Positions 36,231 to 39,141 of a DNA stretch of 57,644 nt are shown here, piece after piece (position 1 is the stretch's first letter; each line of letters begins with the position of its first letter). Source of the DNA: Verrucomicrobiota bacterium (lineage in GTDB: Bacteria > Verrucomicrobiota > Verrucomicrobiia > Limisphaerales > Palsa-1400); contig JBEKYR010000032.1 in NCBI GenBank assembly GCA_049510745.1, forward strand, positions 1 through 57,644. Reading direction: 5' to 3'. The notes under the pieces are model-generated. The model did not search any database, was not told the DNA's origin, and saw only the letters and a list, made by a program, of their open reading frames with translations. The translations under genes and the position numbers were made by a program.

Positions 36231-37961
36231 ATGAACTACCGCTGGACACTGGCGGCGCCGCAGCCGGGGCTTTGCCGGGAACTGGCGGACGCGCTGCATA
36301 TTTCCCCGCTGCTCGCCCAGTGCCTCCTGAACCGCGATTTGCGCCAGCCGGAGCTTCTCGCCCGCTTTCTGACGCCGCGCCTCAAGAACCTGGCGGACCC
36401 CTTTCTGCTTCCGAACATGGCCGCCGCTGTGGAGCGTCTGCTCATCGCGCGGGAACGGAACGAGTTGCTGGTGATTTTCGGCGATTATGATGTCGATGGC
36501 GTCACCTCGACCGCCTTGCTGGTCGAATGCCTAGGCGCGCTGGGGTGGCGGGTCGAACCCTTTCTGCCGCATCGACTGGAGGAAGGATACGGCTTGAGCC
36601 GGGACGGCATCGACCGGTGCCTGCGAAGTTTCCCCACGCGCCTTCTGCTGGCGGTCGATTGCGGCTCCAACGCCCTGGACGTCATCACCCAACTGCGGAG
36701 CGACGGCATCGAGGTCATCGTGCTGGATCATCATCAGGTGTCCTGTCCGCCGCCGCCGGCAGTGGCTCTGGTCAATCCCCAGTTGGGCGGGGACTTTCAG
36801 GAACTCTGTTCCGCCGGCCTGGCCTTCAAGCTGGTTCACGCCCTGGTCAAACGGATGCGCGAGCAGAGTCTGGCCGCCGCCGTCGTCGATCTGCGCGCCC
36901 AACTCGATCTGGTGGCTTTGGGCACGATTGCCGACTTGGTTCCGTTGCTGGGTGAAAACCGGATTCTGGCCGCCGCCGGCCTGGAACGCTTGAACGCCAC
37001 GCCGCGCCCCGGCCTGATCGCGCTCAAATCGGTCGCCGCCAGCCCGCCGGTCCTCGGCAGTTATGAAGTCGCCTTTCAACTCGCCCCCCGCCTCAATGCC
37101 GCCGGCCGGCTGGAAGACGCGCAAGGGGCGCTGCGCCTATTGTTGACACCGGAGCCGGCCGAGGCGCAATCGCTTGCGCGTTCGCTTGATGAGCGCAACC
37201 GCCGGCGGCGCGAGATCGAGCGGGCGATCTGCGCCGAGATCACCGCCGCGGTCCGGGCGCGGTTCCACCCGGAAAATCAGTTCGTCATCGTGGAGGGGCG
37301 CGCCGAGTGGCACGTTGGCGTGGTCGGCATCGTGGCCTCGCGTGTGTTGCAGGAGTTTTACCGGCCGACCATTGTCTTGGGCGGCGAGGGCGAGGTCTGG
37401 CGCGGATCGGGGCGCAGCATCGAAGGCTTTGACCTCGCCGCCTCGTTGCGGGCCTGTGAGGAATTTCTGCTGCGCCACGGCGGCCACGCCATGGCCGCCG
37501 GGGTGAGCGTCCTTCCCGCCAAAGTGCCGCTCTTGCGCGAGCGGCTCAATCAAATCGCGCGCGCCACCCTCCGCCCGGAACAACTCCGTCCGACCCTGAA
37601 ACTGGACGCCGAGGCGCCGTTGTCCGGGCTGGGTTTGGAGCAGGTCGAGGAGTTGGCGCGGCTGGACCCGACGGGGCAGGGGAATCCGGTGGCGCGGCTG
37701 GCGGTGCGGGGCCTGAGCCATCGGCGGCCGCCCCAACGCATGGGCAAGGAGAACCAGCACGTCAAACTGCGCGTCACCGACGGCCGGCACACGCTGGAGG
37801 CGGTTTGGTGGAATTGCGGCCGCGCGGCGCTGCCCGAAAATACTTTTGACATAGCCTGCGCCCCGGCGGTCAACTGCTTCAACGGGACGCGCTCGGTCCA
37901 GTTGAAGGTTCTGGACTGGCAGCCTTCGGGCGCGGCTATTCCCGGCCCGCCGCCGCGATGA
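36231..37961 (+). CDS. recJ: Single-stranded DNA exonuclease
   Basis: GDYDVDG, VDCG, LDHH, GTIADLVPL, APRLNAAGRL, GSGRS, GGHAMAAG. Confidence 0.96.
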   Translation: MNYRWTLAAPQPGLCRELADALHISPLLAQCLLNRDLRQPELLARFLTPRLKNLADPFLLPNMAAAVERLLIARERNELLVIFGDYDVDGVTSTALLVECLGALGWRVEPFLPHRLEEGYGLSRDGIDRCLRSFPTRLLLAVDCGSNALDVITQLRSDGIEVIVLDHHQVSCPPPPAVALVNPQLGGDFQELCSAGLAFKLVHALVKRMREQSLAAAVVDLRAQLDLVALGTIADLVPLLGENRILAAAGLERLNATPRPGLIALKSVAASPPVLGSYEVAFQLAPRLNAAGRLEDAQGALRLLLTPEPAEAQSLARSLDERNRRRREIERAICAEITAAVRARFHPENQFVIVEGRAEWHVGVVGIVASRVLQEFYRPTIVLGGEGEVWRGSGRSIEGFDLAASLRACEEFLLRHGGHAMAAGVSVLPAKVPLLRERLNQIARATLRPEQLRPTLKLDAEAPLSGLGLEQVEELARLDPTGQGNPVARLAVRGLSHRRPPQRMGKENQHVKLRVTDGRHTLEAVWWNCGRAALPENTFDIACAPAVNCFNGTRSVQLKVLDWQPSGAAIPGPPPR

Positions 37962-38949
37962 ACGGTTTCAACTCTTCCATCAAGCGGGCGAATCCGTCCA
38001 GGGTCAGTTGTTGCGCGCCATCGCTCCAGGCCTCGGCGGGATTGGGGTGGACCTCGATGAGCAGGCCGTCGGCGCCCATGGCGGCGGCGCCGCGGCACAG
38101 GCTGGCGACCAGATCGGCCCGGCCCGCCCCCTGGCTGGGATCAATGATGATGGGGCAATGCGATTCGTTCTTGATGATCGGGATGGTGGACAGGTCAATG
38201 GTGTTGCGGGTGTAAGTCTCAAACGTGCGGATGCCGCGTTCGCAAAACATCAGATTCCGATTGTTGTTGGACAAAACGTATTCCCCGGCCAGCAGCCATT
38301 CTTCGATCCGCATCGACAGGCCGCGTTTGAGGAGGATGGGTTTGCCGGTCCTGGCGGCGGCGACGAGCAACTGGAAGTTTTGCGCGTTGCGCGCCCCGAT
38401 CTGGATGATGTCGGCGTACTGGGCCACCAGTTCGACGTGTTGCTCGGAGAGCAATTCCGTGATGATGGCCAGGCCGGTTTCGCGGCGCGCCTTGGCCAGG
38501 AGTTTGAGGCCCTTTTGGCCCAGACCTTGAAATTCGTACGGGGACGTGCGCGGTTTGAAGGCCCCGCCCCGCAGGATGGTCGCCCCGGCCTTCTGGACGG
38601 CGTGGGCCGTGGTCATCAGTTGCTTCTCATCCTCCACCGAGCACGGTCCGGCCATGACCTGGAATTTGCGGCCGCCGATGAGGTGCTGCCGGGCCGAAAT
38701 GACGGAATTGGCCTTTTGCGCCTCGCGGCTGACCAGTTTGTAACGCTTTTGCACCGGCATGACCCGTTCGACTTGCGGCCAGGAACCGAGTGCTTCGAGG
38801 GTTTTGTGCGTCCGCTCGTCGCCGATGGCGCCGATGACGACCCGTTCGACTCCGCGCATGACATGCGGCTTGTAGCCCAGTGCCCGGATCTCCTTGAGCA
38901 CTGCGGTTTCTTCCTTCCGGGCGATGCCCGGCTTGAGAATGATGATCAT
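37936..38949 (-). CDS. aroF: 3-deoxy-7-phosphoheptulonate (DAHP) synthase, type I-beta with N-terminal regulatory domain
   Basis: MAGPCSVE, RGGAFKPRTSPY, QIGARNAQNF, CERGIRTFE, IEVHPNP..SDG. Start at MIIILKPG, downstream of the terminator. Confidence 0.95.
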   Translation of the reverse strand: MIIILKPGIARKEETAVLKEIRALGYKPHVMRGVERVVIGAIGDERTHKTLEALGSWPQVERVMPVQKRYKLVSREAQKANSVISARQHLIGGRKFQVMAGPCSVEDEKQLMTTAHAVQKAGATILRGGAFKPRTSPYEFQGLGQKGLKLLAKARRETGLAIITELLSEQHVELVAQYADIIQIGARNAQNFQLLVAAARTGKPILLKRGLSMRIEEWLLAGEYVLSNNNRNLMFCERGIRTFETYTRNTIDLSTIPIIKNESHCPIIIDPSQGAGRADLVASLCRGAAAMGADGLLIEVHPNPAEAWSDGAQQLTLDGFARLMEELKPFIAAAGRE

Positions 38950-38968
38950 ATATTTGTCACTTTGGATT

Positions 38969-39000
38969 AAAAAAAAAGCCGCAGGCGGCGGGCCTGCGGC
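38969..39000 (-). terminator. Intrinsic terminator of the aroF attenuator
   Basis: Minus strand GCCGCAGGC-ccgcc-GCCTGCGGC-T9. Confidence 0.88.
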
Positions 39001-39019
39001 AACGTTGGGAAGCAATCGC

Positions 39020-39106
39020 TTAAGGCGGCCCTGCGCGGAATACGGTACGGATATAATAATATCCGCCGCTCCGCCAGCTAAAAAACCAGTTGCCGCTGCT
39101 TCTCAT
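39020..39106 (-). CDS. Aromatic-rich leader peptide MRSSGNWFFSWRSGGYYYIRTVFRAGPP
   Basis: 28-aa ORF with 2 Trp, 3 Phe and 3 Tyr between a promoter and the terminator upstream of aroF. Confidence 0.82.
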   Translation of the reverse strand: MRSSGNWFFSWRSGGYYYIRTVFRAGPP

Positions 39107-39113
39107 TGCAGCC

Positions 39114-39141
39114 AGTCTAACAAAAACGACGAGGCCGTCAA
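39114..39141 (-). promoter_or_regulatory. sigma70-type promoter of the aro leader
   Basis: TTGACG-16 nt-TAGACT with a TG extension, 7 nt before the ATG. Confidence 0.65.

Follow-up and report, generated by a model that had tools for sequence, protein, structure and literature searches.

Outside the model organisms, how the common aromatic pathway is balanced without TrpR, TyrR and a set of three isoenzymes is a largely open question. The gene considered here, aroF, encodes a DAHP synthase and lies in a 57,644-nucleotide stretch of DNA from a Verrucomicrobiota bacterium, hereafter the window. It is preceded by a short reading frame and a terminator, which a preliminary description interpreted as an attenuator responsive to Trp, Phe and Tyr. 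The locus raises the question of whether entry into the shikimate pathway could be controlled by a single RNA element, of which this leader is a candidate, that reads all three charged tRNAs. If so, a W/F/Y leader would take over what in E. coli is divided among three isoenzymes and two repressors, and leader-peptide attenuation would extend to the Verrucomicrobiota.

Architecture of the aroF leader

All elements of the leader lie on the minus strand. The sigma70-type promoter (39114..39141) has its -35 box at 39141-39136, a 16-nt spacer and its -10 box at 39119-39114; with 9 of 12 matches, it is the sole promoter-like site within 1.2 kb, where 0.4 would be expected. Seven bases past the -10 box, an ATG at 39106 opens an upstream ORF (uORF) of 28 codons (39020..39106), and the position of the promoter predicts that the transcript starts at this ATG or adjoining it. 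The encoded peptide, for which no match was found in NCBIfam or Pfam, contains two Trp, three Phe and three Tyr, namely Trp7, Phe8, Phe9, Trp11, Tyr16-18 and Phe23. In a post hoc test, 1.5 per 10,000 dinucleotide shuffles (20,000 run) had as many as eight aromatic codons out of 27. The uORF is predicted to form a long stem, topped by a hairpin (39048..39065) whose loop and flanks hold the Tyr codons and which would be a protector or pause structure.

Downstream, the intrinsic terminator (38969..39000) consists of a 9-bp stem (39000-38978; eight G-C pairs), a 5-nt loop and a T9 tract that ends 19 nt before the aroF ATG (38949); the energy of the hairpin is -18.8 kcal/mol. Folding with the ribosome-covered bases blocked predicts an antiterminator in which codons 25-28 of the uORF (39025..39034) pair with a 3' strand (38988..38997) that overlaps the 5' arm and the loop of the terminator. 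Promoter, uORF, Tyr-codon hairpin, terminator with T9 and aroF were all found where the preliminary description had placed them. So were the two blocks of control codons, but the eighth aromatic codon, Phe23, had been overlooked.

The gene itself (37936..38949) encodes a type I-beta DAHP synthase of 337 aa with an N-terminal ferredoxin-like domain, identified by the NCBIfam models NF006421 and TIGR01361, above cut-off, and by the Pfam families PF00793 and PF18152. Its best solved relative is 1rzm, which we take to be the Thermotoga DAHP synthase that is inhibited by Tyr and Phe. If AroF were inhibited in the same manner, the leader would add a Trp input that the enzyme lacks. Because the 3' end of aroF overlaps a recJ-like gene on the opposite strand (named from its translation), aroF is likely a single-gene unit, and across the order, the 28 ORFs that lie on the same strand include no conserved downstream gene, as an aro operon under the leader would have. 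Searches with Rfam leader, T-box and riboswitch families gave at best 18.5 bits in the window, all below threshold, and 0 matches in 18 loci. Divergent from the leader, the segment 39221-39720 (+) contains a pair of small genes, likely a type II toxin-antitoxin system: an ORF of 74 aa that matches no family, and a toxin of the ParE family (PF05016).

In the proposed mechanism, transcription would start at the uORF start codon, where a ribosome would load. With the aromatic tRNAs charged, this ribosome would pass the last aromatic codon and cover the antiterminator strand, upon which the terminator would form and an RNA of ~135 nt would result. With tRNA-Phe, tRNA-Tyr or tRNA-Trp uncharged, it would halt short of the antiterminator, which would then sequester the 5' arm of the terminator, and aroF would be transcribed. 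We infer where the transcript starts, that the uORF is translated, that the RNA switches between the two structures and that each of the amino acids is sensed. The alignments and folding models described below make it very probable that this class of leaders acts as an attenuator. With a lesser degree of confidence, the same evidence favors a leaderless, ribosome-mediated attenuator, with read-through on stalling at any of the three types of aromatic codon.

Conservation of the leader in related genomes

From 130 aroF loci we removed 16 duplicates and 2 without a gene start. The ortholog set comprises 102 loci of at least 70% identity, each with 240 nt of upstream DNA, which by their record titles belong to the Limisphaerales/Pedosphaerales (Verrucomicrobiota). 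Leader classes were assigned blind to amino acids, from a promoter and an ATG or GTG located 130-210 nt ahead of aroF. By this definition, 74 of the 102 orthologs have a promoter and a leader start, in 6 the promoter serves the start of aroF directly, and the remaining 22 have neither. The -10 box lies 6-11 nt from the start codon in all 74 leaders, in a search that itself required 5-11 nt; this agrees with the leaderless start put forward in the preliminary description.

The 74 leaders share a mean identity of 54%. An ORF of at least 15 codons is present in 73 of them (median 27), and a terminator-like hairpin, at the sequence level, in 64; Phe, Tyr and Trp occur together in 56 uORFs. When the leaders are grouped at 70% identity, all 36 clusters contain Phe, 33 contain Trp and 32 contain Tyr, and the three residues occur together in 30, among relatives that are not independent of each other.

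A covariance model of the leader gives one strong match in the window's genome, of 90 bits, the leader having been in the training set. Within the order, 68 of 121 genomes have a match with E<1e-7, by a hand count that includes the training genomes. The match sits directly before aroF in 21 of the 21 top loci checked, some of which are identical to training leaders, and in 13 of 14 mid-score loci, the exception being L197; none of the six weak matches checked does so. No extra copy of the leader was found before other genes. There is one leader copy per genome, and it is tied to aroF.

The same genome encodes a second DAHP synthase, of type I-alpha. No aromatic leader was seen before that gene, and the genome scan gave no other convincing aromatic leader; nor was there a match for class II DAHP synthase or TrpR in this genome (94% complete). 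The scan also revealed a Val-rich, leaderless-type ORF of 27 codons with a terminator and the same type of promoter (G000:C5:97359, minus strand), ahead of a gene that resembles the large subunit of acetolactate synthase, as read from its N-terminus. This leader is, from its sequence, likely an ilvB attenuator; since it has the same build, such control is not foreign to the genome. Of 190 sites in this genome with the same promoter pattern and a start codon 5-11 nt downstream, 65 begin an ORF of at least 100 aa, a count that has no control, and leaderless genes may be common there.

Selection on the aromatic codons

Aromatic codons were counted within codons 2-21 of the 74 leaders, and compared with the other two frames and with 500 shuffles. 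There are 437 of them in the reading frame; the other frames hold 144 and 173, and the shuffles average 222±11. Phe (251 in frame vs 160±7 in the shuffles), Tyr (108 vs 37±6, about three times as many) and Trp (78 vs 26±5, three times) each exceed all 500 shuffles, and there are 5 in-frame stops, compared with 43±6. Selection acts on all three types of aromatic codon, and the uORFs are enriched in codons for the end products of the pathway, as in ribosome-mediated attenuators. T-rich composition, as the sole source of the aromatic codons, is ruled out by the shuffles and by the other frames.

A predicted switch gated by ribosome position

The leader alignment comprises 56 of the 74 sequences, chosen for a canonical terminator, whose core is nearly invariant. 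RNAalifold recovered the terminator alone from this alignment. A two-part segment near the end of the ORF is complementary to the 5' arm of the terminator (84.7% of cells pair), and 5 of the 10 antiterminator pairs have changed on both sides (shuffle controls, 3 and 6 of 500). This covariation is modest, and related sequences can reach such a level without structure; for the protector helix, covariation among the order-wide leaders was not beyond that of shuffles. Of the features for which the preliminary description suggested testing relatives, the W/F/Y uORF and the terminator are conserved, whereas covariation of the antiterminator is only modest.

To compute the energy with which the antiterminator holds the terminator arm, 63 leaders were folded with the bases under and behind the ribosome blocked. 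This energy is 12.6 kcal/mol with the ribosome at the last aromatic codon, 6.6 kcal/mol two codons past it, 2.8 kcal/mol at the stop and 5.2 kcal/mol without a ribosome. In a profile that leaves out the final five codons of each ORF, it climbs from about ten codons ahead of the last aromatic codon and peaks there. The drop exceeds 2 kcal/mol in 59 of the 63 leaders, and 50 of them outdo 19 or all 20 of their segment shuffles. From the start of the last aromatic codon to the antiterminator core, the distance is 14 nt in 26 of 54 leaders and 11-17 nt in 45 of 54, a spacing of about one ribosome footprint. For the order-wide set, the computation finds a mutually exclusive antiterminator gated by ribosome position, and this modeled geometry is stronger evidence for the switch than the covariation is. 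In all, conservation, codon statistics and predicted switch geometry strongly support the earlier proposal of an attenuator before the DAHP synthase gene.

Which amino acids may be sensed

Three-way sensing by the leader is likely, judging from its codons and the folding models, and Phe is likely the strongest input. The segment of the uORF that is predicted to be responsive holds all three residues in 41 of the 63 leaders, and lacks Trp in 18. The aroR leader of Corynebacterium glutamicum, which is reportedly leaderless (Neshat et al., 2014), provides the closest comparison among leaders that have been tested. In the excerpts cited, aroR is described as an F-Y-F uORF before aroF (PMC11802643, PMC4046766, PMC7356990) that responds to Phe and, despite its Tyr codon, not to Tyr (PMC11802643). 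It resembles the present element in that attenuation depends on a uORF with aromatic codons ahead of the DAHP synthase gene aroF; however, as excerpted, it is an actinobacterial F-Y-F leader without Trp, whereas in the present case W, F and Y codons are arranged in two blocks ahead of the gene for a type I-beta enzyme.

The present attenuator might likewise be in practice a sensor of Phe, or of Phe and Tyr, in which the Trp codons, whether tolerated or retained because they pair within the RNA, contribute little to control. Phe is indeed the one residue found in every cluster, its codons are the commonest of the aromatic ones and the last in 46 of the 63 leaders, and they are UUU rather than UUC by 216:35, the reverse of the aroF genes (131:469). 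Nevertheless, this would leave the Trp and Tyr codons, each at three times the shuffle mean, the presence of Trp in 33 clusters and the dense W/Y/F codons of nine distant metagenome leaders, described below, to be explained otherwise, and we regard it as unlikely, though to be taken seriously. With respect to the favored three-way sensor, about 100 natural variants with differing W/F/Y mixes could reveal how sensitivity depends on codon number and position, and why aroR ignores Tyr.

The predicted switch in the window's own copy

The antiterminator of the window's copy departs from the consensus of the order and is near that of the preliminary description: the core GGGCC/GGCCC proposed there is the pairing chosen by the folding model, although the flanking pairs differ slightly. 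Assuming a trailing ribosome, this antiterminator is worth 9-12 kcal/mol with the leading ribosome at codons 2-23, and 3 kcal/mol from codon 25 onward; it closes right after Phe23, and the result is the same for footprints of 10, 13 and 16 nt. When a single ribosome is modeled, with the 5' side free, there is no clean switch, and with the ribosome at the stop the terminator arm is taken up by the 5' end (10.0 kcal/mol). In equilibrium folding, the terminator dominates at every ribosome position (0.91-1.0), with -27.9 kcal/mol for the terminator vs -21.0 kcal/mol. Because equilibrium favors the terminator and the switch needs a trailing ribosome, switching in the window's copy would be kinetic. 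Thus the footprint-constrained folding suggested in the preliminary description predicts a switch across the order, but in the window only with a trailing ribosome, and on these models the switch of this copy is less certain than that of the order as a whole.

In a script-based test of the window's own family, the promoter and start are kept in 7 of 29 relatives and the ORF and terminator in 3 of 29, compared with 17 of 20 and 15 of 20 in other families. Judged by these upstream sequences, most of the family has lost the leader. It could be, then, that the class is functional while the window's copy is decaying toward fixed termination or a fixed leak; the off-consensus antiterminator, the two foldings without a clean switch and the second, type I-alpha DAHP synthase would be in keeping with this. 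We consider it improbable, given that the promoter, the ORF, its eight aromatic codons and the terminator are intact, that the copy scores 90 bits as a member of the training set, and that a replacement antiterminator of 9-12 kcal/mol is predicted to form immediately past Phe23, whichever of the three footprints is used.

A series of decaying leaders can be seen among the relatives: L013, L015 and L019 retain the promoter and an aromatic-poorer uORF without a U tract, and in L009 the middle of the leader is gone. In L050 (G005), the uORF is only 3 codons long before it meets a stop, and aroF is split over three frames; these breaks are likely assembly errors rather than loss. In family f1, the terminator before aroF is kept in 5 of 5 relatives without a type I-alpha match (L018, L023, L028, L032 and L050), and of the 24 relatives with both DAHP synthases only L002 retains ORF and terminator, in a comparison of kin that are not independent and of genomes that are in part incomplete. 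Outside family f1, the leader and a second DAHP synthase often coexist.

Other possible signals

The uORF might also encode an arrest peptide that responds, like TnaC, to a free aromatic metabolite within the ribosomal tunnel and not to uncharged tRNA. Some non-aromatic positions do recur, namely Ser, Arg and a Leu-Arg near the end, but these residues use fixed codons (AGC 59 times, against 30 for all UCN) within paired strands. Phe, Tyr and Trp interchange freely among positions, with no conserved, residue-specific arrest motif, distant leaders have composition alone in common, and the predicted outcome, whereby a stall turns the gene on, fits starvation sensing for a biosynthetic gene. An arrest peptide is therefore very improbable.

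Modification of tRNA at A37 by MiaA/MiaB is common to the tRNAs that read codons starting with U, as all Phe, Tyr and Trp codons do, so the leader could mainly report this modification and, for example, iron status; this we find scarcely credible, because for the other codons that start with U the in-frame counts show no excess over those out of frame (UUA, 1 vs 29.5; UUG, 15 vs 26.5; UCN, 30 vs 43.5; UGY, 21 vs 33.5). A generic U-start-codon (MiaA) sensor is thus rejected as the main signal; it could be a secondary input.

Relation to known attenuators

Classical attenuators with control codons include thrL. The leaders trpL and pheL (PMC11802643) and the multi-residue ilvB1 leader (PMC13236596) belong, in the portions of these sources drawn on, to the same type, with control codons, antiterminator and terminator, and leaders that sense several residues have been described for the branched-chain amino acids. 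As portrayed there, however, trpL and pheL each respond to a single residue and act on terminal branches rather than on the first step that these share.

Other predicted leaders are found before DAHP synthase genes. The motifs uORF-13 and uORF-12 (Stav et al., 2019), from Firmicutes and metagenomes, are F-Y-F or F/Y-rich and, like the present leader, consist of a short ORF and a terminator predicted to be an attenuator; about half of the uORF-13 copies precede aroF (PMC6429828). The excerpt mentions no Trp in them, and their phyla differ from that of the window. An F-Y-F consensus without Trp does not fit the window's leader, which has no F-Y-F and two Trp. The F/Y-only, Bacillota-like leaders L288, L292 and L298 may belong to these motifs. 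The Phe leader uORFC-13-1 of Acholeplasma (Brewer et al., 2021), exclusively upstream of aroF (PMC8632094), likewise combines a uORF with an intrinsic terminator, but has Phe only and a ribosome binding site according to the part of the paper cited. Merino's database predicts terminator-based attenuators before the DAHP synthase operons aroA-tyrA of Vibrio and aroA(I-beta)-tyrA of Thermus, one of them of type I-beta (PMC1173090, Table 7); that table and its adjoining text, however, do not give a leader peptide or a sensed residue.

The consulted parts of PMC2965389, PMC4833913, PMC3082878, PMC3223726, PMC3937554, PMC13236596 and PMC2659441 contain no three-residue aromatic leader. In the full-text literature outside subscription journals, we found no Trp+Phe+Tyr leader, and none in Verrucomicrobiota or Syntrophus. 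A Russian comparative survey may have predicted such control in a deltaproteobacterium. The mechanism class and its place before aroF are thus published, whereas in the literature covered we met neither the Trp input nor this lineage nor such a spread over phyla. The preliminary description overstated the novelty, as aromatic uORF attenuators of the Phe/Tyr type are already known from before aroF.

Leaders beyond the order

Among 35 more distant loci (a phylum sample from outside the order, six of them from the first collection and some of other phyla), two, L132 and L135, have W/F/Y leaders that are unrelated in sequence and share the predicted geometry. In a metagenome set of 80 loci at 45-55% enzyme identity, 67 have enough upstream DNA, and 20 of these have an aromatic-rich short ORF and a terminator, compared with 1 in the reverse-strand control and 0 in five shuffles. 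Inspected by eye, the 20 comprise nine with all three residues in dense arrangement, several of them related to each other, three with Trp runs, five with two residues and three that are doubtful. Eight of the nine show a predicted drop of 5-16 kcal/mol from the last aromatic codon to the stop; L293 shows none. The L269 enzyme is identical to a Syntrophus aciditrophicus protein, and further enzymes carry the label Deltaproteobacteria, Syntrophales or Ignavibacteria, or group with Thermoclostridium. In seven named records, picked from 27 matches, ORF and terminator were recognized by eye in four: all three residues occur in the leader of Ilyobacter polytropus and in that of Thermovirga lienii, which bears the annotation hypothetical Tlie_1900, and F/Y in those of Subdoligranulum and Treponema saccharophilum.

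The preliminary description had thus understated the breadth of the design, which recurs in several phyla. We see roughly even chances that W/F/Y attenuators are a widespread, repeatedly evolved and unrecognized OR-gate at the head of the shikimate pathway, in front of the type I-beta DAHP synthase genes of Verrucomicrobiota, Syntrophales-type deltaproteobacteria, Fusobacteriota, Synergistota and Bacillota. I. polytropus and T. lienii provide cases that are in culture and harmless, and such a leader could serve as a compact pan-aromatic biosensor.

In L229, L239, L243, L250, L261, L269, L276 and L293, the gene after aroF resembles 3-dehydroquinate synthase, as read from N-termini, so the leader there would control an operon. 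The Trp-run leaders of L265, L272 and L275 precede type I-beta DAHP synthases, and in L275 the following gene resembles anthranilate synthase in its translation. Upstream of aroF in L301 and L302, short tandem repeats are found instead of an aromatic leader; from their sequence, these are possibly a protein-binding operator.
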